The position numbers were made by a program, and so were the translations under genes. DNA of 32,000 bases, from NCBI RefSeq assembly GCF_000014265.1, contig NC_008312.1, forward strand, positions 7,718,109 to 7,750,108, given 5' to 3'. The notes beneath the pieces were generated by a model. The model saw nothing but the letters and a program-made list of their open reading frames with translations, searched no databases and had not been told where the DNA came from. Source of the DNA: Trichodesmium erythraeum IMS101 (GTDB lineage: Bacteria; Cyanobacteriota; Cyanobacteriia; Cyanobacteriales; Microcoleaceae). Positions 1,887-30,487 of this stretch are shown one piece after another. Within the stretch, counting starts at the first letter, position 1. Each line of letters begins with the position of its first letter.

Positions 1887-3134
1887 ATGAAAAATACAAT
1901 GGGCAAAGTATTTTGGAAACAACCTTTAACTTATTTATTACTACTAGCAGGAGCAGTCGGAGCATTATTAGGTGAGCGACTAATATTACAGACAAGTAGC
2001 TCTCCAGAAAACTCAAGTCAGCTTACTGAACTATCAGTGACTCAATCTCTTAGCAAAACTGATAATACTTCTAACTCAGAAAAGTCCACTTGGTTACCAG
2101 TTAGAGCCCCCATTTCCAATAGCAATTTTATTGTAAATGCAGTCCAAAAAGTTGGTCCAGCAGTAGTCAGGATTAATGCTTCTCGAGCTGTCAGCCAAAG
2201 ACCTAATATGTATGGATTTAGGGTACCAGAAGATTTCTATGGTTTTGAATTACCTAGATCGCGTAATAGTCCAATTGAGCAAGGAACTGGTTCTGGTTTT
2301 ATCATCAGTTCTGATGGTAATATTCTTACAAATGCTCATGTTGTCGAGGGTTCAACTACTGTAGAAGTGGTCCTTAAAGATGGTCGTCGCCTTCAAGGTA
2401 AAGTTTTGGGCACAGATTCTCTAACTGATGTAGCAGTAGTTAAAATTGATGCTGGTAGTCTTCCAACTGTTAAGATCGGAGATTCAAATAATCTGCAACC
2501 TGGAGAATGGGCGATCGCTATTGGCAACCCCCTAGGTCTAGATAATTCTGTGACGGTGGGCATAATTAGTGCCACAGGTCGTTCTAGTAATGATGTGGGT
2601 GTTCCAGATAAGCGGGTAGGATTTATTCAAACAGATGCTGCAATTAATCCTGGTAATTCTGGTGGTCCTCTGTTGAATCAAAATGGTGAGGTAATTGGCA
2701 TTAATACAGCTATTATTGATGGTGCTCAAGGTTTAGGATTTGCAATTCCTATTAATAATGCTCAACAAATTGCTAAACAATTAATTAAGGTAGGTAAAGC
2801 AGAACACGCTTATTTAGGTATTGCTATGCAAACTCTTACACCAGAACTTAAGCAAGAACTGAACCGAAATTTCAATACAAATATGTTTAGTGACCAAGGG
2901 GTATTAGTAATACAAGTTGTTCCTGGTTCTCCTGCTGATAAAAGTGGTTTAAAACCAGGGGATATAATTCAAAGAATTGATAATCAAACTATTACTACAT
3001 CTGAAAATGTACAGCAAATTGTTCAGAACAAAACAGTAGGTAGTTTGTTGGAATTAGAAATTAATCGGAATGGTAAAAGCTTGAATTTGGATGTACGAAC
3101 TGGAAATTTACCACCTAGAAGATTCAGAGGATAG
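1887..3134 (+). CDS. htrA: HtrA/DegP-family (Deg/HhoA-like) serine endopeptidase with C-terminal PDZ domain
   Basis: N-terminal hydrophobic anchor 'LTYLLLLAGAVGALLG'. Catalytic triad contexts 'ILTNAHVV' (His), 'DVAVVKI' (Asp), 'GNSGGPLLN' (Ser). PDZ-like 'GVLVIQVVPGSPADKSGLKPGDIIQRIDN'. Confidence 0.93.
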   Translation: MKNTMGKVFWKQPLTYLLLLAGAVGALLGERLILQTSSSPENSSQLTELSVTQSLSKTDNTSNSEKSTWLPVRAPISNSNFIVNAVQKVGPAVVRINASRAVSQRPNMYGFRVPEDFYGFELPRSRNSPIEQGTGSGFIISSDGNILTNAHVVEGSTTVEVVLKDGRRLQGKVLGTDSLTDVAVVKIDAGSLPTVKIGDSNNLQPGEWAIAIGNPLGLDNSVTVGIISATGRSSNDVGVPDKRVGFIQTDAAINPGNSGGPLLNQNGEVIGINTAIIDGAQGLGFAIPINNAQQIAKQLIKVGKAEHAYLGIAMQTLTPELKQELNRNFNTNMFSDQGVLVIQVVPGSPADKSGLKPGDIIQRIDNQTITTSENVQQIVQNKTVGSLLELEINRNGKSLNLDVRTGNLPPRRFRG

Positions 3135-5299: not shown

Positions 5300-5869
5300 A
5301 TGAGTATTAATCTCAGCAAGGGTGAAAGAATTAGTCTATCTAAAGAAGCGCCTGGAATGAAAAAAGTTGTAGCAGGTTTAGGATGGGATGTAAATGTTTC
5401 AGATACAGGTTCAGATTTTGACCTTGATGTTTCTGTGTTTATGTTAGGAGCAAGTGGCAAAATTCCTCAAGAGAAATACTTTGTTTTTTACAATAATCTT
5501 AAATCTCCTGATGGTTCAGTAGAGTCTATGGGAGATAGTCGTACAGGAAAAGGAGAGGGAGATGATGAGACTATTACTATAGATTTATTAAAGGTTGATT
5601 CGATAATTGAAGAAATTATTTTTGTTGTTACTATATATGAAGCAGAAAAAAGAAGGCAAAATTTTGGGCAAGTGAGAAATTCTTACATCAGAATTTATGA
5701 TGAGGAAAATGAAGAAGAAGTAACTAAGTATGAACTAGAAGAAGACTTTTCTAGGGAAACAGCTATAGAGTTTGGGAAACTGTATAAAAAAAATAGTGAA
5801 TGGAGATTTCAAGCTGTAGGAGAAGGTTATAATTCTGGCTTAGAAAGTTTTGTACAAAAATATAACTAA
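5300..5869 (+). CDS. terD: TerD-family stress/tellurite-resistance domain protein (paralog 1)
   Basis: 'GLGWDV', 'DFDLDVSVFML', Ca-binding-type 'GDSRTGKGEGDDETI', C-terminal 'EWRFQAVGEGY'. GAGGA lies 8 nt upstream of the ATG. Confidence 0.9.
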   Translation: MSINLSKGERISLSKEAPGMKKVVAGLGWDVNVSDTGSDFDLDVSVFMLGASGKIPQEKYFVFYNNLKSPDGSVESMGDSRTGKGEGDDETITIDLLKVDSIIEEIIFVVTIYEAEKRRQNFGQVRNSYIRIYDEENEEEVTKYELEEDFSRETAIEFGKLYKKNSEWRFQAVGEGYNSGLESFVQKYN

Positions 5870-6880: not shown

Positions 6881-7456
6881 ATGTCTGTTAAACTCAGTAA
6901 AGGTCACAGAATTAATCTTTCTAAGGATACACCAGGGTTAACAAAAGTAGCTATTGGTTTGGGATGGGACGTTAATCCTACTGATACAGGTACGGAATTT
7001 GATTTAGATGTCTCTGTATTTATGTTAGGAGATAATGGAAAAATTCCAGAAGATGAATACTTTGTTTTCTACAATAATTTAAAATCTCCAGATGGTTCAG
7101 TAAAGCATTGGGGAGATAACAGAACTGGAGAGGGGAAACAGGATGATGAAACAATAGAAATAGATTTAACTAATGTTAATTTGAGTATTGAAGAACTACT
7201 TTTTGTTGTAACTATCCATGAAGCAGAAAAAAGAAGGCAAAATTTTGGGCAAGTTAAAAATTCTTTTATTAGAGTTTATGACTTAAACACTCAAGAAGAA
7301 ATAACAAAGTATGAATTAGAAGAAGATTTTTCGAGAGAAACTGCTATAGAATTTGGTCGTCTTTATAAGAAAAATAGTGAATGGAGATTTCAAGCAGTCG
7401 GAACAGGATACAATACTGGTTTACAAACTTTTGTAGATAAATACGTTTACTCATGA
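6881..7456 (+). CDS. terD: TerD-family stress/tellurite-resistance domain protein (paralog 2)
   Basis: Same motif set as paralog 1: 'GLGWDV', 'EFDLDVSVFML', 'GDNRTGEGKQDDETI', 'EWRFQAVGTGY'. Roughly three-quarters identical to paralog 1 by eye. GAGGG lies upstream of the ATG. Confidence 0.9.
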   Translation: MSVKLSKGHRINLSKDTPGLTKVAIGLGWDVNPTDTGTEFDLDVSVFMLGDNGKIPEDEYFVFYNNLKSPDGSVKHWGDNRTGEGKQDDETIEIDLTNVNLSIEELLFVVTIHEAEKRRQNFGQVKNSFIRVYDLNTQEEITKYELEEDFSRETAIEFGRLYKKNSEWRFQAVGTGYNTGLQTFVDKYVYS

Positions 7457-12683: not shown

Positions 12684-12905
12684 TTTGAAATGAAGAAGTA
12701 ACTATCACAGCAAATCCCAGATCAAAAGTGAATAATTTTGATGTTGCTACTTAATTTATTTAACTTCAAAATTTTAATTTGATTGTAAAACACTATTTTT
12801 AAAATGAAATAGTGGAGTATATTATCAGTAACAATAGATGTTTAATAATCATAAACAGGGAATAGATGACTTATGAGAGAATAGTAAGTTTAAATAAACT
12901 TCTTA

Positions 12906-12938
12906 CTCCTAAAAAAATCCTTAGCTGAACTGTATTAA
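12906..12938 (+). repeat. Dispersed ~30-nt motif, copy a (AAAAAATCCTTARCTGAACYGTATTAA family)
   Basis: 'ctcctaaaaaaatccttagctgaactgtattaa'. Near-identical to 13941-13974. Related to 21244-21280 (inverted) and more weakly to 4231-4259. Confidence 0.55.
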
Positions 12939-13444
12939 TTTATAATTCCTATTTATATCTATTCCCTACTTCATAAAAAGACATTTTAAGCCAGAGACAT
13001 AAAACTCACTGTTCCCTTAAATTATTCCCTAAGAATTTCTAATAATGCTTACACAGTTTACCGTATATGATTTTCTACAAATTGGGTTACCAAATAGAGT
13101 AATACTAACTCTCATAAGTAATGGTAACTTTTTTTCAAATTTCAGTTATTAAATAATTAATATAAAAAAAATATTTTTTAACTCTCTTTAGCTAATCTAA
13201 AGTTAATTGTTATTATGTTTACTTACTTTATACTGTTTTACCCCCCTACTTTTCTACTCTACTAAATAAAATATAGAAAAGTTTTTGATAAATAGTATAA
13301 GTTAGTGATCGCCAATTTACTCCCTTAAAATCTAATAAACTCCTTGAATTGTCAATCAGTTGTTTTCAATTGATAAATTTTTGCTTTCTACCTCAATTCC
13401 AATACCAGAAATGATTTGGGTATATTTTAAAAATTTTTAATTGG

Positions 13445-13625
13445 AGAAACAGGCGAAGCTTGAGAAAAAATAAACGCACCACCAAAAAGATAACCTATCC
13501 TCAAAAGAGTTAGTTGCAGCAGCCTGTGAAACGTCAACCCATCCTTGGGCTTTGCTTTTGTAGAATTACTCCTAAACTTAACAGCCAGGCGTGATATCAA
13601 TATTAATGGAACTGTGTGCCACAAT
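13445..13625 (-). repeat. GC-rich repeat element, partial copy 3 (inverted relative to copies 1 and 2)
   Basis: 'gaaacgtcaaccca' (13528-13541) is the reverse complement of S1 'tgggttgacgttt' (6020-6033). 'ttaacagccaggcgtgatatcaatattaa' (13578-13606) approximates the reverse complement of S1 'ttaatagttgacatcctccctggttgttag' (5955-5984). Spacing between blocks is 37 vs 36 nt. GC-elevated patch. The 73-aa TTG-start ORF here is probably an artefact. Confidence 0.45.
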
Positions 13626-13940
13626 AAACTAGACTCAAAATTTTTCAAACCCTTGACTATTTATAAATTTTCTTGAGTATAAAAATCCCTGAAACTAAAT
13701 CATTTCAATGTTTTCACTTAATAGATTTAAGCCCATTTTACTGTAATAATCTTTTTTTTTAATTGGTATGACTCAATATACTCTTAAATAATTTCTTTAC
13801 TTAAATCCTTCCTATTTTCTGACTTCTTATTTCTGACTTTCTTTGTGATATTATAATTATTTACTGTGATTATATATCAATACGATTCAGGTAAGACCAA
13901 AGACTATGGAGACAGAATTATAAGCTTTTCAGATTACAGA

Positions 13941-13974
13941 ACTGCAAAAAAAATCCTTAACTGAACCGTATTAA
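13941..13974 (+). repeat. Dispersed ~30-nt motif, copy b
   Basis: 'actgcaaaaaaaatccttaactgaaccgtattaa'. Confidence 0.55.
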
Positions 13975-14366
13975 ATAATGTATGATGATTGACTGAATTT
14001 TAAGGGTTACTGATTCCCAGTAGTCACTCAAAATTGATTTGATAGTTAATCTATTAAATTTTTCTTTTGTTTACTTTTCCCTTTGTATTCTAAACATAGT
14101 AGTCTGTCAATCTTTGATTGAGAGGTAAATCAGTTCTCAAAAAACTGATTTACTAGCTTTTTAAATTTTATTAACCCGTGATTTTTTCCTAGACAGACCA
14201 CTAGTATCTACCTATCATGAGAAAACTGCTCAACCACTAGTATAAGTTAGTAAATACATGTAGTTGAACTTCTGCCCACAAAAAAATCAACCTATATCAA
14301 CTCATATCATTATTCAGCAACGCTAATTGCTCAAAAACCTAGCTAATAGACAACCAAGCAACTTTT

Positions 14367-15527: not shown

Positions 15528-18500
15528 GTCGCGTTCCTCATGCTCCTTAAGTTGAAGAATAAATTATTTTACAGAAGTTTTCTGTCTATCTTAAGACAGT
15601 ATAGCTATTGACCAAACCTATAAGGTTTATGTTTTTTTTATAGAAACTGGGAAATTACATTAGGTTGCCAATAAGACTTACTTTTATGACAGCAGTTTTG
15701 AAGTTTATGAGGTACAAAATTTTACAAGAAATTTTACCAGTTTAGGGAATAGAGATTAGTAATAAAACTATACCTCACAATCATAAAAAAAATTACCATA
15801 ATATTGACTCTTTTTCCCAGTCTTCAGAGTTCTGATTTCTGACTGGTTAATGGTCATGCTAGTATCATATTCTACATTTTAAGTACCTCAACTCAACTTT
15901 TTTATAGTCACTCTTATAGAAGGGAAACCTATATAGTGTTGATTTTTCCATAGCTTGTTTCCACTTCAGTAGCAGGTAGTTTTTCATCACTACTCTAAAA
16001 GATTACTGGGCTTTAAACCCAAGCTTTTTAGTAAAATTTTCTGATACAGGTATCAGACAAGCGAGTTTTACTATAAAACTTATTTTATCCCCGTTTATTT
16101 TAAGTTGACATTCTGCCTACTGTATTAATTAATAGCTTAAGCTATGATAATAGCTATTTTTTATCTGAGCATATCCAAAGAGTTTTTATTTTTATGAAAA
16201 CTATTCGGATTTATTTAGGTTTACCTTTGCACTTTTACTGATTATCCTTTTATCCTCACCTAATTATGAATACTGTCTGGGTAATTGCCAGGAATTTATA
16301 TTCAACACCATCAAAATATTATTTATTTAGTGATTAGTTATTGTGAAACTATTAGGGAATTAACTACAGAATTAGACGTTGCTGAAAAGGTCATGAAAAT
16401 AAACACTCTTACGTATTTGTTCTTCAATAAGATTAGCAATTGATAATTAATATAAGTCATACCCACATATTCAGCAAAGGCTACAATACTTATAGTTAAT
16501 AATGCCACTAGATATAATAATATCTAATTTAGCTAAGTACTGAAACTTTAAAAAGAATTATACTCTAGCCATAAATCTTTTTCCCAAGGAGGGGAATAAT
16601 ATATATTTAAGTTTGTACTCTCTTTTTTTGAACCTCCTAATTAAAGTTTTCAATACTTTTGCTGAATCTTTCTATTTACTCCTATATTATTATATATTGT
16701 TAGTATACATGTCATAATTGTGATATTTTTTCTGGATCTTATTAATTTAGGTAAGCATTCAACTGAAAGTTATCAGCTATTACTTTTAGGGTGTAATATA
16801 AAGCTTTATTAATTGAATTCTAATTAAATCTTAACTACGAAAGTCGGTTTCCTTAACCTTAAAGTTGACTTTTATTTAAATACTGTCCTCATGGAAATAG
16901 TCTTATTGCTTAGATATGACTGCTTATAGCTGAATTTACATACTTTAGTTTTTCCCCTGACTATATACTATGGGAAGCTAATTCTATGTTTGTGGTCAAA
17001 CTCAAGTTTTTTATTTCACTATAATACTATTGATACTACAATAATAACTGTAATTATTTAGCTAGATACTAACTTAATTAAAGACAACTCTCAGTAGGTA
17101 TATATCTTTTAGTTTAACAGATTATTTTATTAAACGCTACTTAGATTATGCCAAAATTATTATTTTTGATCGAGCACTATGGTCATTACATATTAATCTT
17201 TGGTATTTTTTCTATATTTTTTATTCATCAGTATATGTTAATTCATCCTTTTCATTCTATTTTCATGCTTTAGAGTGGATATTTGATTAGTCTTAAGTGC
17301 TGTGATGAGATGCCAACACTTCAATAAACATAAGTAGATAAACTTAATACTAGATTTCTTAATAGTAAAGTTTTTAACTATCCTATTGTTACAGAAAAAT
17401 TATCTCTCAGCCCAAGTTATGTCAAAGTAGGCTTCACATTAATTTTTTCTACCTTATTAGATAGATGATAAATTTACTTATCTTATTGTAGTTAATACTC
17501 TTCATATGCAAGTTAGATTAAATTTTAGCAATATATAACTAAATATTACGTTAAGAGAAATGAAGTTTTTGATGTTAAGCTGTCATAATACAGACTAAGC
17601 AGCAACTTTGTGTACATAAAATAGGCTTTTCTAGAGTAGTTATGATAATTTAATAATAAAAAAATTACATTTTCCTTAATACTTTTTAAGCAAAGTTTTG
17701 TCAAACCTTTGCTAGATATTGACTAATCCTAGAATTCAATGTTATTAAATATGTTCAATTTTAGCAACAAAAATGAACTTACAGTAATATGCCATTTACA
17801 CCTAACTCTATTTCATCACTCAAATAATTAAATTTGAAAACAATAATAGTAACTAATTACCATTTTATTACTTATTAAAGCCCGTAAATAAAGCCTCAAC
17901 TGCAACTTGCCCTTGTTCTTAAAAGACTACAGATAAAATATATTAATCTCATTGATATAGAGTCAGAGATATTTATATTAGTAGCTTTAATGTTTTACTA
18001 CTTTGTTGATTGCTATAAATTTATATTTCAAAACTGTAAGTATGTTTTTCAAGGGAATTAAAATTTTTCAAAAAAACAGAATAATCTATAGAAAAAATTA
18101 TCCCAAAAAGTAGTAGCTAACATAAGTATTAAAAATAGATTTTATTAATATTGGAAAAACAAATAAAATGACTCTAGTACAAATAAGTACGTAAGTATCA
18201 ATAAAGGTGAAAATAAAAAAACTGATAAAATACCTATAACCTAATTATCAAAAGGTTTTCACCAGTTTAATTTTTATTGCTATTGTACAGATAGTTAAAC
18301 CAATTTACTTATAAACTATGCTTAAAGAGAAAGTTATTACTCCTTGTAGAAGTTAAACATATTGGTTGATATCAATGCCTATTTAGGCTACCCCAACAGT
18401 CGGGGTAGGTATGGTTTAGTTGAACCCAAAATATAAGAATGTTTTTTATGGATTTAGTCATCTAGATATCCCAGGGCGTTGTAATTTTCAGTGAAAAAAA

Positions 18501-19139
18501 AATAAAATAGCTCTTTTTTACAAAATAATTAAGTAGTTGTGCAGAATTAATTATACATAAATAAATAAATAAGAACTAGATGTCAAATTATCTAGGCTTA
18601 AAGTACTTACAAATCAAGATAAAAAAAGGAAAAATTTATTAAGTATGTTTAGATAAAAGTAATTTTTATTTGAGGCGATCTATTTTATATAGATGGCAAA
18701 AAAAAGGAAAAGTAATAACTTCTAAAAATTATTAGAGTAAACAAGCAAATGTTTTAGGGTTAATGAATTGCAAAAATGAATTCTATTACTAAATAATCAA
18801 GGTATATATATATAAATTAGTAAAGTTATGGTGAATTCTTGAGATAAATTGAGTCATGACTTGTCAAAAAGAGCTTTATTAGTTCTGGACTAAGTAGGTA
18901 GGCGTTAAAATTTATTTCTATGTAACAAAATGTAAATTTTGTCTCCTGTCAATTGTCTAGAGAGTCTTGGAGTCTCTTTACAAAATTTAATATAGTTAAG
19001 CTTTTTTTGTGAATATCTACTTAAACTTCAGTTCATACTAGTGGTCGTATACTGAATAAATTAGAAGAATGGAAGTAAAAAAAAATGGAAATATTTTGCT
19101 TGCCTATCTATGTTAGCAAAATCTAATATAGTAGAAATG

Positions 19140-20140
19140 TGATAGAAACTTATGGCATTTTTCAGCATTGATGAGGTGCAATAGCAGCACTTGGTAAACC
19201 AATGTCCATGTCTGAATATTTAATTATGTCGCTTGGTGCAAAAGCTTTGTTAATAGATTCTTCTAAGTCTTTATAAGTTCACAGCATCTAAAGACAATAA
19301 GTTAATTTTTTATCTTTGACCATATTTGTTCAATGGATAAAAATTCCGGGAAGTACGGAGGAAAAAAAACAGCTTGGATCCAACTTCCTGGTTAGCTTTT
19401 TCTATTTCTTTCCCATTATGAATACTACAATTGTCAATAACTAGACAAGCACCAGGTCACAATTGAGGTATCACTTTAATTGAATAAATGTTTCGTATGT
19501 TTGCTGATAAAACTATTCCTTTGCGAGTGACAGCTCAATAAGAATGAAATTCTTTTTCCTTTTTAATGGAGAGTCTGAACACGATCTATTTTAGCCTTAT
19601 TTTACTGTGTATATAAGCCAGCCATTGCCATATCTACTTCAGGTTAATTTATAAAGATTAAATCTTCAACCAAGATGTTTTTGATTATTTCCTAATACTA
19701 TAATCTCAATTTTTGTACTTTTTTATTTATTTTTTTTTCTCAGCATAAGTTGTTTTTTTACTGTTGATTTGAGTATTTTTTTATTATACTATATTGATTG
19801 TCTGCTGACTCTAAATCCGGCTTTTTAATTATTAATTTGCAACAGTTATTCATTAGTTAAATCATGATTTTTTCTATTAATTGTCCTTGTTAATTATTCT
19901 GACTTATTTGTTAAAATTTAACTCCTATAACCTTAGGTTTAGGGCTCATATTTCCAGTCTTTATGTATGGCTTTAAAACTTTACTAATCAAACTAAGGGT
20001 AACTTTAAAATTCTCTGCTAGTTGACCATAAAAAATCCTTTAAAAATAGTAAGATTCAATAATTTTTTTCTGAAATATATTGAGTATTTCAACTTTTTTT
20101 ATTCTGATAAAGGTATTGTTTATACTGTACCTCATAGATT
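19140..20140 (-). pseudogene. IS630/Tc1-mariner-family transposase pseudogene (about full length, heavily decayed)
   Basis: Minus-strand fragments: 'GQLAENFKVTLSLISKVLKPYIKTGNMSPKPK' (HTH region, ~20030-19930), 'LLTIVVFIMGKK' in one frame, i.e. 'V.DNCSIHNGKEIEKA', then 'LFFLPPYFPEFLSIEQIWSKIKN' (~19440-19300). Many stops and frameshifts. Confidence 0.75.
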
Positions 20141-20339
20141 TGATAATTGCTATATCATGCTATGAATGGATTTAAAGTAGGATACCTAAAAATTGCATTA
20201 GCTTACTTCCATATCTTAAAAAGTGCTTGAGAAAAAACGGAACAGAATATGTAATTAATTCTGTTTATACACTTAAAACTAAAAAATACAAAGACAATTA
20301 GTGTAAGTAATAAATAGGAAAAAGTTTTAGCATTTATCT

Positions 20340-21107
20340 TTAATAAGAACCTTTTCTCAAAAATTTGATGTAATTCTCAACAAGAGGACGGGTGATTTTC
20401 CTGTTAGTAATTCTCTGTCCACTATGATAATGAATCTGAGCATGGACATGATAACCAGAGGTTCTTCCTGTAAGACCTTGGATACCAATTAATTGTCCTT
20501 TATTAATTCTTGTTCCTCTTCTTGGTGTTGAACCTTGTAACAAATGACCCATTAACCAATAATAATTAGTCCCATCACACATAAGTTCAACTATCTGACC
20601 TGCACCTTGGGCTACTCTAAAACTTCCATTTCGGCCTTGAAATCTAGTTCCGCGAATAGTGCCTTTGCAAGGCGCTGGAATAGGAACTTGTAATTTACCA
20701 TTTAGCTCTAGGGTAAAATCATAAGCTCCCGGAGGGGTATTATCAATGAAATAAGGAGTATGAATTACATAAGGTAGAAATTTATCTGATTTGCCATAGT
20801 ATGGAATCAAAAAGGGAGTAATTTTGGGGAAGTTATGTTGTATCTTCTCTTGCACAATGGCTATTTTTTTTGCTACTTCTTCTATTATTTGAACTCCTGT
20901 TTTGATTAAGGGAGCTAACACAGTTATATGTATTAAAAATATAAATATCAAAAAAACAAAAAAACTTTTAACTTTACCACTATAGTGATTGTATTTTTTT
21001 TGTAAGATTAGTTGTTTTATGAGAAAAATAACTAATGGCGTTGAATATTGGTAAAAAAACTTTTTATAGGGCAATATTTGTGATTTTTTTTGTCTAAAAA
21101 GTTGCAT
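20340..21107 (-). CDS. M23-family (LytM-like) peptidase-domain protein with N-terminal membrane anchor
   Basis: C-terminal 'YYWLMGHLLQGSTPRRGTRINKGQLIGIQGLTGRTSGYHVHAQIH' fits the M23 G.(S/T)G..tG.H.H block. TM 'FFVFLIFIFLIHITVLAPLI'. The upstream H...D zinc motif is not obvious. The exact start is uncertain. Confidence 0.7.
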   Translation of the reverse strand: MQLFRQKKSQILPYKKFFYQYSTPLVIFLIKQLILQKKYNHYSGKVKSFFVFLIFIFLIHITVLAPLIKTGVQIIEEVAKKIAIVQEKIQHNFPKITPFLIPYYGKSDKFLPYVIHTPYFIDNTPPGAYDFTLELNGKLQVPIPAPCKGTIRGTRFQGRNGSFRVAQGAGQIVELMCDGTNYYWLMGHLLQGSTPRRGTRINKGQLIGIQGLTGRTSGYHVHAQIHYHSGQRITNRKITRPLVENYIKFLRKGSY

Positions 21108-22254: not shown

Positions 22255-22653
22255 TCAATTTGAATTATCTTGAATTACCCATTTCCATAGAAGATGAGTT
22301 GGTCCTTGATGTTTAATCTGACGTACTTGTTGTTCTAAGCCCTTTTGTTCTTCTGGAGATATACCCCAAAGAATGTTTCTACTTTGCCAAACTAAAATAG
22401 CAGTTGTAGTACCAAGACACAAACCTAGACCAAGAGAAGATAGCCTATTATAAGCCAGAGCGTAACGTACAGAAACCCAGGTAAAATGCTCTACCCATAA
22501 ATGAATTTCTCTGCGTAAACTCCATATACTTAGAGAACCAATACTGATCCAGAGAAACACAGCTATTAACCATCTACAATAGATTTTTAATCTGTAAAGT
22601 CTCTGTACTTGAACTGGTAAAACTGACTCATCTTTACATATTATTCTAGGCAT
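22255..22653 (-). CDS. Hypothetical membrane protein (132 aa, about 3 predicted TM segments)
   Basis: ATG ORF with hydrophobic stretches 'WLIAVFLWISIGSLSIW' and 'LGLGLCLGTTTAILVW'. No family recognised. Confidence 0.5.
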   Translation of the reverse strand: MPRIICKDESVLPVQVQRLYRLKIYCRWLIAVFLWISIGSLSIWSLRREIHLWVEHFTWVSVRYALAYNRLSSLGLGLCLGTTTAILVWQSRNILWGISPEEQKGLEQQVRQIKHQGPTHLLWKWVIQDNSN

Positions 22654-23343: not shown

Positions 23344-25143
23344 CTAATATGGGTTTAACCTCATCCATCTACATTCACCATTTTCCTCGCAATATGGTTT
23401 AATTAAATAAAAATTAGCACCTTGGCGATCGCCTTTATTTGGCCCATCTTTAATAATTTTAACTTTTCCTGTCATCCCTATAAAATCAGTATTTAACAAA
23501 GCATTATTGATTCCTTCTGGTGTAGGAGTTCCTACGCTTTGATGTTGTTGAGAAATTGCTCGAATGAACATTTCAGTCGCATCATAAGATGTGCCAATGC
23601 GCGTGATTAAATAATCCTCTGTCTTCCAAAAACTCTGAAAATTTTTAAATTTTTGATCTGACTCAGAGGGTTCCCAAAATCTTCTAATTATTATGTTATT
23701 CAGTACTGACTTGTCGAATTTTGTCAAAAAATCTGGAGTATACACAGGACTATTACCAATCAGTAAAAAATCTCCTTTATTTTCTTCAATAATTGCTTTA
23801 ACTTGACCTCTTTGGGATTCAGTGTATGCACCCATAAATAAAAAAATAACTGTATTTGTCTCATTACGTAAAGGATTATTTTTGTATCTTTTAAGTGTTT
23901 CTCTCAAATCTAATGGATTTTTTTGAAATAATTCAACCTCTGTAATATTGTCTTTCTGTATCCTTTCTAGGAGTTGTTTTTTTGCTTCAGAAGATGAAGA
24001 AAGAGAAAAAACATCGGTACTATTCCTAAAAATAATTACATTTTTTATTTCTAGATTCTCATTATCAATGTACTTTCTAACTGCATCCATCGCTTCTTTT
24101 GTTGTTCCAATAGTTCTAAAGAAAAATGAAAAATTTAGTTGAGAATTCGACAAATTTTCACTTTTAAATACCTTTTTATAAGTATCTTTTAGGTCTGCTC
24201 TAGTAGAGGTAGCACTTGGTGTAATTTGATTTATTTTAAGTTTATGATATTTATTAATTACATTGATTGTAGCTCTGGAAGAATAATGACCTATAAATCC
24301 TAAAATAGGATTATCTAAAGTAGAATTATAGGTTCCTATTTCGTCAGCTATTTTTTTAGCTTGTTCTCCGTCGTTAGAATCATCAGCCATTAACACTAAT
24401 AATTTCCAATCTTCATTATTATCATCAGATTTATTATTAAACTCCTCTTGTTTCCAAGCTATCCCTCTAAGTATATTCTTACTTACATATCTTAGGGTGT
24501 GACTAAAAGGAATAGCAACACTGATTGCATAGACCTGGTTTCTAGGTAAGTCTCCTTGTTGAATATCTAGCATAACTTTGGCATTATTCAAAGCAATTAA
24601 AAGAGAAGGATCTTTATCTCCATCCTCTCCTTCCCATGCTTCTTTTAAATATTCAACAGCTTGTTTATAATTCCTTTTAGCTAATTCATCTCTCCCACGC
24701 CTTTCTTCTGTTGAAAATGCGCTGTTTACAGGAAAATTAATAGTAATACCTTGCTCTTTTTCACCACAAGTTAAGAACTGAAATTCTGTAGGACAAAGAT
24801 CATAAATACTTTTACTTTTAGGATTATTTTCAGAATTATTTTGAGAAATATTTTGAGGTTGATTTGTATCAATTTTCTTAAATATGTCTAATATTTTCTG
24901 ATATATTACTAATAGAAAAACGAAAAAAAGACAGTAAGGCAAAAAATGTGTAAGCCACCACTTTGGTATTTTATTTCCATGAGTTGAATCAATAGGATTC
25001 TTTAGTGATTCTCGTGTAATTTTCCGAGAAATACTAGCAGGTATTTCAGGCCAAATTTTTTCTAAAGCTTCTATTGATATCGCTACACCAGACTTTCCTT
25101 TTCCTTTTCCATCAACATCAATTTTATGAGTAACTAGACCCAC
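23344..25143 (-). CDS. C-terminal part of a frameshifted gene: trypsin catalytic-Ser segment, TM helix, and LivK-type (PBP type 1) extracytoplasmic ligand-binding domain
   Basis: The frame stays open upstream of the nominal GTG start and reads 'GILRSGYSGAPVYDINKKSVVGLVTHK' (G.SG.P serine motif). TM 'FLPYCLFFVFLLVIY'. PBP1 hallmarks: 'TCGEK', 'NYKQAVEYLKEAW..DPSLLIALNNAKV', 'ILRGIAWKQEEFN', 'LLVLMADDSNDGEQAKKIADEI', 'ILGFIGHYSSRATINV', 'ITPSATS'. Confidence 0.8.
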   Translation of the reverse strand: MGLVTHKIDVDGKGKGKSGVAISIEALEKIWPEIPASISRKITRESLKNPIDSTHGNKIPKWWLTHFLPYCLFFVFLLVIYQKILDIFKKIDTNQPQNISQNNSENNPKSKSIYDLCPTEFQFLTCGEKEQGITINFPVNSAFSTEERRGRDELAKRNYKQAVEYLKEAWEGEDGDKDPSLLIALNNAKVMLDIQQGDLPRNQVYAISVAIPFSHTLRYVSKNILRGIAWKQEEFNNKSDDNNEDWKLLVLMADDSNDGEQAKKIADEIGTYNSTLDNPILGFIGHYSSRATINVINKYHKLKINQITPSATSTRADLKDTYKKVFKSENLSNSQLNFSFFFRTIGTTKEAMDAVRKYIDNENLEIKNVIIFRNSTDVFSLSSSSEAKKQLLERIQKDNITEVELFQKNPLDLRETLKRYKNNPLRNETNTVIFLFMGAYTESQRGQVKAIIEENKGDFLLIGNSPVYTPDFLTKFDKSVLNNIIIRRFWEPSESDQKFKNFQSFWKTEDYLITRIGTSYDATEMFIRAISQQHQSVGTPTPEGINNALLNTDFIGMTGKVKIIKDGPNKGDRQGANFYLIKPYCEENGECRWMRLNPY

Positions 25144-25180
25144 AACTGATTTTTTATTAATATCATAAACGGGGGCACCA

Positions 25181-25660
25181 CTATAACCTGAACGAAGAAT
25201 TCCTTTTTTTTATCTCTAACTTTCCAACTGCAACTTTTTCTGTTACATTCTCTATTATTTGTAATGCTTTTTCTCCATCAACCTCAACTATCATTTCTCC
25301 TCTTATTGTTTGACGACGAAGCGCGTTATTTTGTCCAAAAAGATAATAGCCAGGAATTTTAACTTCTAATTTTTTTCCTTCCTTTCCATCTAAAATCCTT
25401 AAGTTCAAGGATGAAGCTAAAAAAGTTGTATTGATTTTTAAAATAGCTACATCAAAACCTTGAACATCTCCTATTTTTATAACTTCCGCTGGAAGATTAT
25501 TCACCCTTATATTTTCTTCTCCACCCACACCCTCAATAACATGAGCACAAGTAAGCAGATAACTATAATTCTGTTGTTTATGAAATATAAATCCAGTACC
25601 AATAACATTTGCTTTTTTTGCACTTCTGATTAAAACAATAGAATCTTCTAAGTTACTCAT
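25181..25660 (-). CDS. N-terminal part of the same frameshifted gene: trypsin-fold (S1-like) serine protease His/Asp segment, no signal peptide
   Basis: 'IGTGFIF...YLLTCAHVIEG' (His) and 'GFDVAILKI' (Asp). The ORF ends 'EIKKRNSSFRL*' just after an A8 run. The catalytic Ser is encoded in the +1 frame that continues into 23344-25143. Confidence 0.8.
   Translation of the reverse strand: MSNLEDSIVLIRSAKKANVIGTGFIFHKQQNYSYLLTCAHVIEGVGGEENIRVNNLPAEVIKIGDVQGFDVAILKINTTFLASSLNLRILDGKEGKKLEVKIPGYYLFGQNNALRRQTIRGEMIVEVDGEKALQIIENVTEKVAVGKLEIKKRNSSFRL
25204..25211 (-). other. A8 homopolymer (T8 on + strand) at the frameshift junction of the protease-receptor gene
   Basis: With A8 the sequence reads gag ata aaa aaa agg aat tct ... 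tag. Removing one A gives gag ata aaa aaa gga att ctt cgt tca ggt tat agt ggt, i.e. EIKKGILRSGYSG. Confidence 0.85.
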
Positions 25661-25976
25661 TTTCTAACTTTTTAGGTTTCAAAACTAACTTAACTTTTAA
25701 ATTCGTACCCCCCTTTCCTTTAGTAATATAGATGTTACCCTGCCCCTCAAAATTTAAACCTACTTCTACCTCAGCTTGTTCAATTTCCATATCTTTATTG
25801 ATTTCTTGCCAAGCTTCAGCAATAGGACGACTAATACTAATTAATATAGGTTTAATCTGAGCAAAAGCAGATTTAACTCCTTTAATAAAATTAGTAGAAA
25901 TAGTTTCTGATTCATCCTCTGAGGCTCCTGAATAAACTAAAATACCATTTTCTAGTTCAATTAATCTGGTAGCCAT
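25653..25976 (-). CDS. Small trypsin-co-occurring protein (Trypco2-like / 'CU044_2847-like' family, assigned from memory)
   Basis: 107 aa. N-terminal 'LIELENGILVY'. C-terminal 'IEQAEVEVGLNFEGQGNIYITKGKGGTNLKVKLVLKPK' matches the ..evEfGlkl..e.g..i.k.....n.kv.L.w. pattern of small proteins encoded next to trypsin-like proteases. Its stop overlaps the protease start (ATGAGTAA, 25653-25660). Confidence 0.7.
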   Translation of the reverse strand: MATRLIELENGILVYSGASEDESETISTNFIKGVKSAFAQIKPILISISRPIAEAWQEINKDMEIEQAEVEVGLNFEGQGNIYITKGKGGTNLKVKLVLKPKKLENE

Positions 25977-28853: not shown

Positions 28854-28948
28854 AATTTAATTAAATTAAAGTAGCATTTAGAGGATTGTATTGATAATTA
28901 ATACTAATTTCATCAAATTAAAAATTCACTTATAAATATTTTTATAAA

Positions 28949-28969
28949 CTTGAAATCCCAGATTTCAAG
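28949..28969. promoter_or_regulatory. Perfect 9-bp hairpin in the secD 5' region
   Basis: cttgaaatc-cca-gatttcaag, about 95 nt upstream of the secD start. Its right arm begins the 36-nt direct repeat. Confidence 0.35.
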
Positions 28970-28996
28970 TAATGTGTAGTCTAACTTTAGGAAATT
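28961..28996 (+). repeat. 36-nt direct repeat, left copy
   Basis: 'gatttcaagtaatgtgtagtctaactttaggaaatt' vs 30046-30081 'gatttcaagttatgtttagtttgactttaggaaatt': 32 of 36 positions match by my count. Confidence 0.6.
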
Positions 28997-29592
28997 GGTA
29001 ATATATATGGATATTTTTTTGTATAAGGTCAATATAAATGTTTAAGTCATATAAAAAATATCTAGGCTTTTTAGGGAATGAGCAATAGGGAAGGGTTTAG
29101 TATATTATTTACTTTGCATTTAACCCTTTAAAAAGATGTCGTATAACTTTAACACAAAGAAAGTGATGTCACCAAATTTGTTCATAGTTTTTAGGAATAA
29201 GATAAGTCTTCCCTAATCAATTTCTCAGCCTTATATTTCTGCCCATCCAATTTTGTTTCAAAGCTTGAGTATTCAATTTGAAACCTCACTTTGCAGTAGA
29301 GATGAATTTTGAGATTTTGTCTAAAAAAAAACAAGGGCACTGCCAGTTCAATTAACTCAGAGCAGGTAATTGTTGGATTGGAATTGCTCAAGTATCCTCA
29401 AGTGGATTGATTCTTACAGGGAGAATTGGTAAATATAATGGCCAATGAGATTGGATAACTCATAGTTAATACAGAAGGTAAAACTAACTGTCAATATTGG
29501 CATACCGATAATTGAGTCGGATCTAAAAAAGTTATGCTCCCTGAAATTTAGCATATTATTGCAAAAGACCAGACACAGCAATTAGAGCGAAC

Positions 29593-29916
29593 GTACGGAA
29601 TTGTTGGACAATAGAAGGGTCGATGGCATCCCCGAGATGCAGAAATTTGCTAAGGTTTGGGAGCAGATATTAATAATACTGAGATTAGCGATCGCGGAGC
29701 GTGGGGTCAGCTATATCGCCTATTTCAATTAGATTTGGATTCATACTTCTAAGGACAATACAGCAGGAGAAAGGACAGGTTTAGGGTAATACAGCAACTG
29801 CAGCAGCTATATCAATTCCTAGAACTGGTATGACTTAATTGTCTATCCCACACTTTGCCCTGTGCAAAACCTATGTGTCTAATGGATAGCAATTGTAGTA
29901 GGTAGGTACAGAAATT
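29593..29916 (+). repeat. GC-rich repeat element, copy 2
   Basis: Collinear blocks with copy 1. 'gtacggaatt' (29593-29602) matches 5930-5940. 'aggtttgggagcagatatt' (29653-29671) matches 'aggtttttgtgagcagaagtt' (5993-6013). 'tgtctaatgga' (29876-29886) is identical to 6154-6164. 'ttgtagtaggtaggtacagaaatt' (29893-29916) matches 'ttgttggaggtcagtacggaatt' (6172-6194). Confidence 0.55.
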
Positions 29917-30045
29917 GCTTAACTATATTAATTTTTGTAAACTAACTTCAAGTTTCTCGAAATAGTTGACTTGAGAGGTTATACCAATTTCATAAACTTA
30001 AAACTTCAATTAACTGATCAAAATATTTACAAGTTTGACATCTTG

Positions 30046-30081
30046 GATTTCAAGTTATGTTTAGTTTGACTTTAGGAAATT
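30046..30081 (+). repeat. 36-nt direct repeat, right copy
   Basis: See 28961-28996. Confidence 0.6.
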
Positions 30082-30487
30082 TATATTATTTACATTTTAT
30101 TACATAGCAACAAAGTTTAACTCCTACCTACTTAGGAAGGTTAAAAAACAAAAAGTTGCCCGCTTGAAGGAAAAGCTTAGTAAGCATTAAATTTGCTCCT
30201 CTTCAACACTCAGATTCTGAAAGAATTCAGTAGCTTAGCAAGGTTAGCAAATAAGCAATGTTATTTATATTTCATCATTCCTGGGAGACCAATTCCTGCT
30301 TAGGGTGTGATAATGAGTTAATAACTCATAGCTAAACTGCGAAGTTAGAACTCTGGAGGATAGCTGATAGCTTATAGCTAAATCCTTACAAAGCTTGAAT
30401 CGTTTATGTTATCAAAAAATTTAATTAGTCTTCTTGCTTCTTCTTTCTCTCCTAGATAACTAAAGTCTTCCTCCTTCTTGCTTCCAG

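Follow-up and report, generated by a model that had tools for sequence, protein, structure and literature searches.

Kaur et al. (2020; PMC7159879) defined Trypco1 and Trypco2 in VMAP ternary systems, where one or the other, but not both, neighbours a trypsin-like peptidase. The same work described EACC1 systems in which transmembrane (TM) helices are followed by a periplasmic-binding-protein (PBP) domain outside the cell; a trypsin-PBP fusion is not described there. A review of cyanobacterial orthocaspases names the 'ANF receptor' among their accessory domains (PMC7475262). Recently, Evans et al. (2025; bioRxiv 10.1101/2025.11.14.688446) reported on SsPepco of Streptomyces, a member of the Pepco family ('also called Trypco1 and Trypco2'), which forms SDS-stable 9-10-mer β-barrels. 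A neighbouring trypsin-like protease cuts SsPepco after Ile97 and removes its charged, Pro-rich tail; the exactly trimmed protein kills E. coli, and toxicity requires the catalytic Ser. The text of that preprint contains none of the words periplasmic, extracellular and substrate-binding. Here we analyse a minus-strand cassette of Trichodesmium erythraeum IMS101, located in a 32-kb stretch of contig NC_008312.1 (positions 7,718,109 to 7,750,108; hereafter the window), that combines a Trypco1-type small protein with a trypsin-fold protease and a type-1 PBP (PBP1) ectodomain. We consider it probable that it belongs to the Pepco/Trypco1-trypsin death or defence cassettes, that it carries an extracytoplasmic sensor, and that it is dead in IMS101 and survives elsewhere as fast-evolving intact alleles.

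Architecture of the Trichodesmium cassette

Three co-directional open reading frames (ORFs) make up the cassette, as an earlier note on this DNA had proposed, and an exact-sequence look-up identifies them as Tery_5075, Tery_5074 and Tery_5073. Tery_5075 (25653-25976, minus strand) encodes a 107-aa small protein, in agreement between the ORF list and an exact sequence match. Tery_5074 (25181-25660, minus strand; 159 aa) is the 5' fragment of a protease gene, and Tery_5073 (23344-25143, minus strand; 599 aa, GTG start) is the 3' part of the same split gene; its frame is open from ~25210 and holds the end of the protease domain, a TM helix, a linker and the PBP1 ectodomain. The stop of the small-protein gene and the start of the protease gene overlap by 8 nt (ATGAGTAA, 25653-25660, minus strand), an arrangement that, read from the gene layout, is one of translational coupling. 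The identical overlap geometry is found in Trichodesmium orthologs and in an Okeania pair of Trypco1 and trypsin-FGE genes.

The earlier note had called the small protein trypsin-co-occurring, coupled to the protease and Trypco2-like. The first two descriptions stand, and the third does not: the Trypco2 profile gave no match to the 107-aa protein even at E ≤ 1, while Pfam Trypco1 PF19493 (E 1.5e-8, 35.5 bits, cut-off 24.6) and NCBIfam NF041216 ('CU044_2847 family'; E 6.6e-13, 49.2 bits, cut-off 23) both matched it above their cut-offs. By these profiles the protein is a member of the Trypco1 family, and the Trypco2 identity is rejected. It has no signal peptide. In an alignment of 31 homologs its C-terminus reads K96-L97-V98-L99-K100-P101, with K96, L97, L99, K100 and P101 invariant, followed by a variable tail of 2-17 aa that in Tery_5075 is charged and 8 aa long. 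KLVLKP may be the counterpart of the I97|R98 cleavage site described for SsPepco. Read from the sequence, polar and apolar residues alternate along the strands EVEVGLNFE and NLKVKLVLK. Tery_5075 is a predicted pro-toxin, laid out, with secondary structure from a low-confidence model, as N-terminal strands, a long helix, an amphipathic β-hairpin, the KLVLKP motif and a charged tail. Whether the small protein would be a substrate, an inhibitor or a pro-effector had been left open by the earlier note; the Pepco family, which is stated to include Trypco1 and Trypco2, has been shown to contain a protease-activated pore toxin (bioRxiv 10.1101/2025.11.14.688446).

All the protease, TM and ectodomain motifs previously quoted were recovered, with coordinates verified by translation. 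The His motif LLTCAHV lies at 25538-25558 (minus strand; catalytic His40 codon 25541-25543), the Asp motif FDVAILKI at 25433-25456 (minus strand; Asp70 codon 25451-25453) and the Ser motif GYSGAPVYD at 25162-25188 (minus strand; Ser160 codon AGT, 25180-25182). The protease has no signal peptide. Protease and receptor had been thought to share one reading frame, and three-frame translation places the 159-aa and 599-aa ORFs in different frames. The 159-aa ORF ends in VGKLEIKKRNSSFRL and a stop, its last seven residues being out of frame; the adjacent frame, with KKGILRSGYSGAPVYD, continues as the 599-aa ORF. The break is a +1 frameshift in a homopolymer of eight A (A8; T8 on the plus strand) at 25204-25211, within the run GATAAAAAAAAGG. 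Only removal of one A from this tract joins the two ORFs, giving a single 771-aa protein whose 771-codon frame is otherwise open in IMS101. On this repaired fusion Trypsin_2 matched residues 21-175 (29.6 bits, cut-off 27.6). The Ser160 codon shares bases with the TAG that closes the 159-aa ORF and sits upstream of the first start (GTG 25143) available to the 599-aa ORF, and no product of the window as encoded holds His, Asp and Ser together; one polypeptide with the complete triad is found in the syntenic loci L001, L003 and L004 and in the ortholog P0001. Tery_5073, annotated as 'branched-chain amino acid transport periplasmic component-like', thus forms a single frameshifted gene with Tery_5074, each being one half of it; the two are not a transporter component plus a small peptidase.

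Relatives of the protease domain carry a variety of partners. Trichodesmium trypsin-FGE paralogs are 73-74% identical to it, Okeania, Dapis and related proteins (41-57% identity) are fused to FGE-sulfatase, GUN4 or VMAP-C, and more distant ones (~31-37% identity) to SIR2, TIR, CHASE2, SAVED or NTPase domains. The 8-nt overlap recurs in Okeania sp. SIO2F4, there between a trypsin-FGE gene and a Trypco1 that is 79% identical.

A single TM helix separates protease and ectodomain (24889-24960, minus strand; fusion residues 234-257), on both a Kyte-Doolittle scan (19-residue maximum 2.03) and an AlphaFold2 (AF2) model (helix 229-259). The model was built on the intact ortholog P0001 (88% identical) from a 51-sequence alignment and has a mean pLDDT of 83. 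It places a two-barrel protease at residues 1-200, with a low-confidence loop at 125-137, and, after the TM helix, a disordered stretch (259-310), three helices (312-362) and an alpha/beta domain (371-760). In the window, the juxtamembrane region (24565-24885, minus strand) comprises a low-complexity linker, a Cys pair and a three-helix TPR-like cap (~312-365) in which TPR and MIT profiles match weakly. The Cys pair C289/C298 (LCPTEFQFLTCGEK, 24757-24798) is nearly invariant in the alignment of relatives. The type-1 PBP or Venus-flytrap domain occupies 23371-24549 (minus strand; residues ~371-763) and includes the GHYSS and TPSATS loops and C757/C763; the motifs TCGEK, LNNA, GHYSS and SATS were all located in the ectodomain. 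ANF_receptor PF01094 matched residues 405-739 of the repaired fusion (40 bits, cut-off 25.4), so that Trypco-type, Trypsin_2 and PBP1-type profiles all score above their cut-offs, which speaks against chance matches.

A single-sequence search of the PDB with the ectodomain returned spurious weak matches only, and a family profile was needed. The profile of 47 relatives matched 4mlc (E 4e-22) and LivJ (E 5e-15), and its alignment brings the GxYSS and SP(T/S)xTS loops onto the equivalent loops of Leu-binding proteins. Foldseek against the PDB paired the modelled ectodomain with Leu/Ile/Val-type binding proteins (4q6b, 4nv3 and 3ip5; target-normalised TM-scores 0.80-0.83) and with metabotropic glutamate receptor (mGluR) and atrial natriuretic peptide (ANP) receptor ectodomains (E down to 1.7e-19). 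The model confirms the predicted type-1 PBP / ANF-receptor Venus-flytrap fold. We infer an N-in/C-out topology with an extracytoplasmic ectodomain, since a signal peptide is lacking in both the protease and Trypco1, conserved Cys pairs (289/298 and 757/763) occur only C-terminal to the helix, and relatives carry kinase, TIR and CHAT domains N-terminal to the same TM-ectodomain module.

This ectodomain family had been said to be best known on kinases, but these are not its main partner. Among its 47 closest relatives (30-40% identity), 15 carry a CHAT (12) or caspase (Peptidase_C14, 3) domain, six Pkinase, three AAA_35 and two TIR. They share the Cys motif and the helical cap, Peripla_BP_6 matches in 46 of the 47, and a trypsin domain is present in none.

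Intact genes confirm the order protease-TM-LivK-type PBP1. A search of 5.8 billion protein clusters retrieved P0001 (768 aa, 88% identity to the repaired fusion; Logan assembly), P0002 (768 aa, 83%; Trichodesmium MAG_R02, a metagenome-assembled genome, MAG), P0003 (763 aa, 82%; JGI metagenome), P0004 (763 aa, 78%; Logan assembly) and P0007 (746 aa, 68%; Trichodesmium MAG_R04), and a 769-aa allele, P0102, ~93% identical, sits inside the window's own 90% cluster. Intact fusions of 746-769 aa are present in MAG_R02, MAG_R04 and three metagenomic lineages, mostly with an intact Trypco1. Loci L001 and L003 are syntenic with the window over dnaA, the pyruvate dehydrogenase (PDH) E1beta gene, secD, secF, Trypco1, the fusion, a 132-codon ORF (orf132), an M23-peptidase ORF and a sigma-70 gene, and the shorter L004 from secD to M23; all three have an intact 107-aa Trypco1 and an intact fusion. 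These orthologous sequences show the protease-TM-PBP1 fusion to be real, with protease and receptor linked as a single gene and not as always-separate genes. An exhaustive HMMER scan of 1.84 billion representatives found no fusion, that is, no match over both protease and ectodomain, outside the Trichodesmium cluster. Four hits with two matching stretches were rejected: three are a duplicated trypsin, or a trypsin plus STAND or TIR, and the fourth (P0126, 180 aa) is too short for both domains. Two metagenome-contig scans gave no additional Trichodesmium allele and a genome-contig scan gave only MAG_R02.

From this architecture we propose the following mechanism. By homology to Pepco, Trypco1 would most likely be a cytoplasmic, pre-assembled β-barrel pro-toxin kept inactive by its short C-terminal tail. 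The intact second gene would encode a single-pass membrane protein with a cytoplasmic trypsin-fold protease (His40/Asp70/Ser160), TM helix, Cys-bonded stalk, helical cap and Venus flytrap. A small amino-acid-like ligand in the periplasm, or a disturbance of the ectodomain, might alter the oligomeric state of the receptor, and the changed state could switch on the cytoplasmic protease by proximity. The protease would then clip Trypco1 after the invariant aliphatic residue L99 (KLVL|KP), and the trimmed barrel would permeabilise the membrane and kill or arrest the cell. That an external ligand licenses cytoplasmic proteolysis, as the earlier note suggested, can reasonably be supposed. The interpretation in that note is thus supported in part. 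We see the cassette as a known type of protease-effector module with a different sensor, which is restricted to Trichodesmium, polymorphic and fast-evolving.

Inactivation, diversification and competing explanations

The one-component switch envisaged by the earlier note cannot operate in this genome as encoded, given the frameshift, which recurs in several independent assemblies. Loci L001, L003 and L004 read GATAAAAAAAGG, GATAGAAAAAGG or GATCAAAAAAGG at the frameshift site (A7, AGAAAAA or CAAAAAA), while the A8 run is present in the window and in 12 other fetched loci. Identical truncated proteins are encoded by IMS101, T. erythraeum GBRTRLIN201, the ALOHA_ZT_67 MAG and several metagenome assemblies, and A8 is also found in a sub-lineage 1.5% divergent at the DNA level. 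Some Logan runs may be re-sequenced IMS101 cultures, and we count only 3-4 A8 sources as clearly independent. A sequencing error is unlikely and was dismissed as the cause, given this recurrence across independent assemblies including the 1.5%-divergent lineage. We regard the IMS101 cassette as a recent pseudogene that, from its reading frames, is most likely inert because the protease is split inside its second barrel, between Asp and Ser; its toxin gene is intact yet could not be activated, and would be harmless since the activator is missing. The 2.6-kb cassette (23344-25976) contains eight A/T homopolymer runs of at least 7 nt, compared with 0-1 per housekeeping gene of the window, which would make it unusually prone to slippage frameshifts.

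Gene comparisons show at least three independent inactivations of the cassette in Trichodesmium. The first is the A8 frameshift; further stops accompany it in locus L006 (a second one, in the ectodomain) and in L005 (one that comes three codons early). In the second, L017, 1% divergent from the window, the tract is in frame (GAGACAAAAAAAGG) but the protease carries the nonsense codons G47* and L87*. In the third, MAG_R04 (L002), the fusion is intact and the upstream Trypco1 has W57* and a frameshift near its 3' end. The MAG_R04 pair lies at a different chromosomal locus, pseudogene and fusion side by side, which indicates that the genes move as a pair. Group II intron-type reverse transcriptases (RVT_N, RVT_1, GIIM, HNH) are encoded within a few kb of this relocated cassette (L002 1059-2804) and of the MAG_R02 trypsin-FGE paralog (L018 7198-8835); the latter paralog also adjoins an intein-rich ribonucleotide reductase gene.

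Evolutionary rates set the fusion apart from its neighbours. We estimated dN/dS (omega) by the Nei-Gojobori method for the fusion and for control genes alike. Between the window and L004 the fusion has dN 0.037, dS 0.003 and omega ~12, compared with dS 0.09 and omega 0.06 for secF; between the window and L001, secD has dS 0.18 and omega 0.09. Omega for the controls secF and secD spans 0.05-0.12, and that of the fusion is ~1.0-1.1 in the deepest comparisons. Differences at the three codon positions are distributed 38:21:9 in the fusion and 11:6:40 in secD. Synonymous expectations were obtained by spectrum-matched random placement of the same substitutions. Of 68 differences between window and L004, one is synonymous (13.5 ± 3.2 expected, P<0.0003), and of 180 between L004 and L001, both intact, 21 are (35.8 expected, P 0.0003). 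The 350 differences between L001 and L002 have a neutral-like synonymous fraction (65 vs 68 expected), with no stop where 19.4 were expected and 10 of 10 indels in frame.

Polarisation with the outgroups gave nonsynonymous to synonymous counts of 29:2 on the L004 branch, 21:0 on the A8-clade stem and 4:0 on the window-only branch; the L005-only branch has 17 nonsynonymous changes (plus one stop) to 2 synonymous. Pooled, the post-frameshift branches have 21 nonsynonymous changes and one stop to 2 synonymous and do not depart significantly from neutrality. The locus is a mosaic: the secF of L004 is near-identical to that of L001 (dS 0.004), and its fusion is closest to that of the window. The putative pocket motifs GHYSS, TPSATS, FFFR, GAYT and YDAT are invariant among alleles, and variation is concentrated in protease loop 108-133, around the TM helix and linker, and in certain patches of the ectodomain. 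We read these allele comparisons as suggesting that in intact alleles selection keeps the frame open while the protein surface diversifies, as in conflict genes.

The substitution spectrum is strand-asymmetric and A-biased on the coding strand, with 43 A<->G/C vs 6 T<->C/G changes (P ~5e-5; window vs L004, L005 and L001). Such a bias resembles the mutagenesis of diversity-generating retroelements (DGRs), yet it is dispersed over 2.3 kb and the window has no template repeat of the gene; DGR-driven variation was rejected on these grounds. Synonymous divergence of the fusion is ~30-fold below that of the adjacent secF. Our reading accounts neither for this extreme deficit relative to the flanks nor for the A-biased spectrum.

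Several further observations weigh against a dead, Pepco-like death cassette. Few synonymous changes have accumulated after the frameshift, which is unexpected for a pure pseudogene, although not significantly so. Pfam Pepco PF24393 scored the 107-aa protein below its cut-off (E 0.014, 16.3 bits, cut-off 27), and the transfer of function from Streptomyces SsPepco to a cyanobacterial Trypco1 would depend on a statement in a preprint and on family profiles. The Trypco1 tail has 8 aa here and 3 aa in some homologs vs ~20 aa in SsPepco, and so short a tail may mean a different cleavage logic. The AF2 monomer of Trypco1 (strands 68-76 and 91-99, helix 30-62) has a low-confidence pLDDT of 49, as expected of an obligate oligomer, and was left out of the fold search for that reason. 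Upstream of the MAG_R02 trypsin-FGE paralog (L018 4001-5623; protease domain 74% identical) tblastn found no Trypco1 gene or remnant, in contrast to the Okeania trypsin-FGE gene (L021), so this protease family can exist without the small protein. PADLOC returned no significant match and no fitting model for the cassette. Finally, we infer all of the ligand, the direction of the signal and the mode of protease activation.

The ectodomain might not sense a ligand at all and instead be a guarded bait or anchor, through which an invader, such as a phage protein at entry or lysis, sets off the protease; the diversification would in that case mirror an arms race with the invader. This would fit the strong nonsynonymous excess across the ectodomain and protease loop 108-133, the invariance of the pocket motifs GHYSS, TPSATS, FFFR and YDAT, which leaves the variation on surfaces, and the presence of the same ectodomain on other death-type effectors (CHAT/caspase, TIR). 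However, the amino-acid-binding loops shared with LivJ and mGluR are conserved, which argues that a small ligand is still bound, there is no known phage partner, and surface diversification could equally come from relaxed constraint. We find a bait unlikely.

We give still less credence to a non-lethal role, in which the receptor-protease would answer amino acids in the periplasm, and the processing of Trypco1 (or of other substrates) would serve regulation or a channel and not cell death. The ectodomain family does occur on Ser/Thr kinases, ordinary signalling enzymes, in 6 of the 47 relatives, and the neighbours are housekeeping genes (secDF, a sigma factor, Ftn2/ARC6) with no defence island. 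Against this, the characterised Pepco member is a toxin whose trimmed form kills E. coli, recurrent independent knock-outs with dN/dS of at least 1 are typical of costly conflict genes, and the other partners of both modules are death-associated (TIR, CHAT, SIR2, SAVED).

The A8 tract could also be a reversible OFF/ON switch or a recoding site, with slipped-strand mutation, transcriptional slippage or +1 ribosomal frameshifting at AAA-AAA-AGG restoring the 771-aa protein in some cells; the cassette would then still work in IMS101, as a phase-variable suicide or defence module. The break does lie in a homopolymer, the P-site Lys codon can re-pair in the +1 frame without a mismatch, AGG, the zero-frame codon that follows, ranks second-rarest among the Arg codons in the genes of the window (5 per 1000), and the gene has the A/T runs described above. 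The two A8 sub-lineages differ at 34 positions, of which 1-2 are synonymous vs 5.4 expected (P 0.02-0.06). However, every IMS101-type contig examined has A8, with no A7 variant at ~100% identity, and relatives have lost the system irreversibly (the nonsense codons of L017, the extra stop of L006, the Trypco1 pseudogene of L002), pointing to plain loss. The otherwise open frame is uninformative, as post-frameshift divergence is so low that only ~2.3-2.4 stops would be expected (P ~0.08 for none). An 8-nt A run is also short for efficient transcriptional slippage. Reversible expression from this tract seems to us rather improbable.

That the whole Trichodesmium gene family is decaying junk without selection, its high dN/dS being mere neutrality, would agree with an omega of ~1.0-1.1 in the deepest comparisons, with disrupted copies in several lineages and with the low coding density of the window (17 ORFs of at least 100 aa in 32 kb), but is very hard to credit given that L002 and the other alleles differ by no stop where 18-19 are predicted and by 7-10 indels all in frame (P<0.0003), and that the L004 branch and A8-clade stem together have 50 nonsynonymous to 2 synonymous changes, far fewer synonymous than neutral.

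To a wider and frankly speculative idea we give a small but real chance: filamentous cyanobacteria may have 'outside-in' death switches in which a periplasmic Venus flytrap directly gates a cytoplasmic executioner (a trypsin with its Trypco1 pore in Trichodesmium, a caspase-fold enzyme or a TIR domain elsewhere), and the Trichodesmium cassette would sense a danger or kin signal from the periplasm or from outside the cell, trigger death through a pore, and be kept as an ON/OFF/diversifying polymorphism. The signal could be, for example, amino acids or wall fragments leaking from lysing trichome neighbours, and the A-tract frameshift and nonsense alleles would be the OFF alleles, which would link the cassette to the programmed death of Trichodesmium cells and the collapse of their blooms. 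Blooms of this nitrogen fixer, which is of global importance, end by programmed cell death, and a ligand-gated protease-pore cassette that is polymorphic (intact or broken) and evolves fast in natural populations would be a concrete, testable candidate for the trigger. Known protease-effector defence modules sense inside the cell; here an extracytoplasmic receptor could license a suicide toxin from outside the cytoplasm, and the occurrence of the same receptor module on caspase-fold and TIR domains elsewhere suggests that the principle may be general in multicellular cyanobacteria.

Surroundings of the cassette

The cassette lies between secF and a small membrane-protein gene in a window of ~30% G+C, whose other recognised genes are all housekeeping: an HtrA-like protease, def, two TerD genes, PDH E1alpha, Ftn2/ARC6, sigma-70, M23, secF, secD and E1beta. 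As the earlier note had it, the window holds no NTPase; neither the 32 kb nor the syntenic loci contain NTPase, VMAP, MoxR or vWA genes, and an NTPase-dependent (VMAP or STAND) system is ruled out there. The components of a VMAP / MoxR-vWA ternary system (MoxR ATPase, vWA protein, VMAP-C domain) are likewise absent from the window and syntenic loci; the paralogous proteases P0056-P0058 carry VMAP-C PF20028, whereas the Tery_5074/5073 gene does not. Rfam and tRNA scans of the window found nothing, and a promoter and terminator scan gave counts equal to the shuffled expectation and was uninformative.

The small membrane-protein gene is orf132 (22255-22653, minus strand), which encodes a conserved, predicted membrane protein of 132 aa with no Pfam or PADLOC family. 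At every syntenic locus it is found 690 nt downstream of the cassette, and it is not beside the relocated MAG_R04 copy; compared with L004 it has 8 differences, 6 of them at codon position 1. The M23-peptidase ORF (20340-21107, minus strand) encodes 255-257 aa in the window, L003 and L004 and 193 aa in MAG_R02 (L001 12208-12789), a disparity that could come from start-site or integrity differences.

Farther away, the HtrA/DegP-type protease (1887-3134, plus strand; Trypsin_2 plus PDZ, 415 aa) is a housekeeping gene unrelated to the cassette. The two tandem TerD-domain paralogs (5300-5869 and 6881-7456, plus strand; 189 and 191 aa) share 72% identity in their first 300 nt, which make up a DNA repeat (family D1). 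Coding density is very low, with only the 17 ORFs already mentioned, and kilobase-scale stretches lack any ORF of at least 100 aa (15528-20339, 12684-14366 and 28854-30487). Short interspersed repeats, 48-95 nt long, 72-90% identical and in both direct and inverted orientation, occur at 18890-19036, 28923-29007 and 29882-30135, in long intergenic stretches, and may be miniature repeat elements.

Comparison with described systems

Among the closest known systems is the SsPepco-SsAvs4 pair of Streptomyces subrutilus, in which a small Trypco/Pepco protein also lies directly upstream of a trypsin-like protease fused to a sensor. Like SsPepco, the Trichodesmium protein has amphipathic β-strands, and its conserved aliphatic residue followed by a basic one and its charged, Pro-containing C-terminal tail may correspond to those of SsPepco. 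Unlike SsAvs4, a cytoplasmic STAND NTPase that senses a phage portal protein, the Trichodesmium sensor would be a TM helix plus a periplasmic PBP1 domain, with no NTPase; the tail of its Trypco1, a putative toxin, has 8 aa and not ~20 aa.

EACC1 two-gene membrane systems ('System 4' of Kaur et al., 2020) resemble the cassette in their conflict context and in a TM segment followed by an extracellular PBP, which there take the variable position. Their constant component is EACC1, whereas in Trichodesmium it is Trypco1. Natriuretic-peptide receptor guanylate cyclases and class C G-protein-coupled receptors likewise couple a PBP1/Venus-flytrap ectodomain across the membrane (Foldseek E 1e-16 to 1e-19). 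Unlike the Trichodesmium protein they are eukaryotic and have a cyclase or 7-TM output, and the likeness is one of fold and receptor logic only.

The two halves of the cassette each have cyanobacterial counterparts. The ectodomain belongs to the same family as that of CHAT/orthocaspase-TM-ANF_receptor and TIR-TM-ANF_receptor proteins (PMC7475262; P0127, P0133, P0134, P0130 and P0054), with 30-40% identity, the Cys motif, the cap and the GxYSS / SPTST loops, and it likewise stands C-terminal to a TM helix and a cytoplasmic death-type domain. Those proteins carry a caspase-fold or TIR enzyme and no Trypco1 partner, whereas the Trichodesmium enzyme is trypsin-fold. One CHAT version (L019) has a DUF1822 neighbour. 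The other half corresponds to the Trypco1 and trypsin-FGE (CLec) pairs of Okeania and other filamentous cyanobacteria (PMC7159879; L021, the SIO2F4 locus), with a 79%-identical Trypco1, the same 8-nt overlap and a homologous protease domain (43-44% identical to Okeania, 73-74% to the Trichodesmium paralogs). Their C-terminal module is a soluble FGE-sulfatase/CLec domain and that of the Trichodesmium fusion a TM helix plus PBP1, which means that the sensor has been swapped. On these domain comparisons, Trichodesmium has joined a Trypco1-trypsin cassette to a TM-PBP1 module of cyanobacteria whose partners elsewhere are caspase-fold, TIR and kinase domains.

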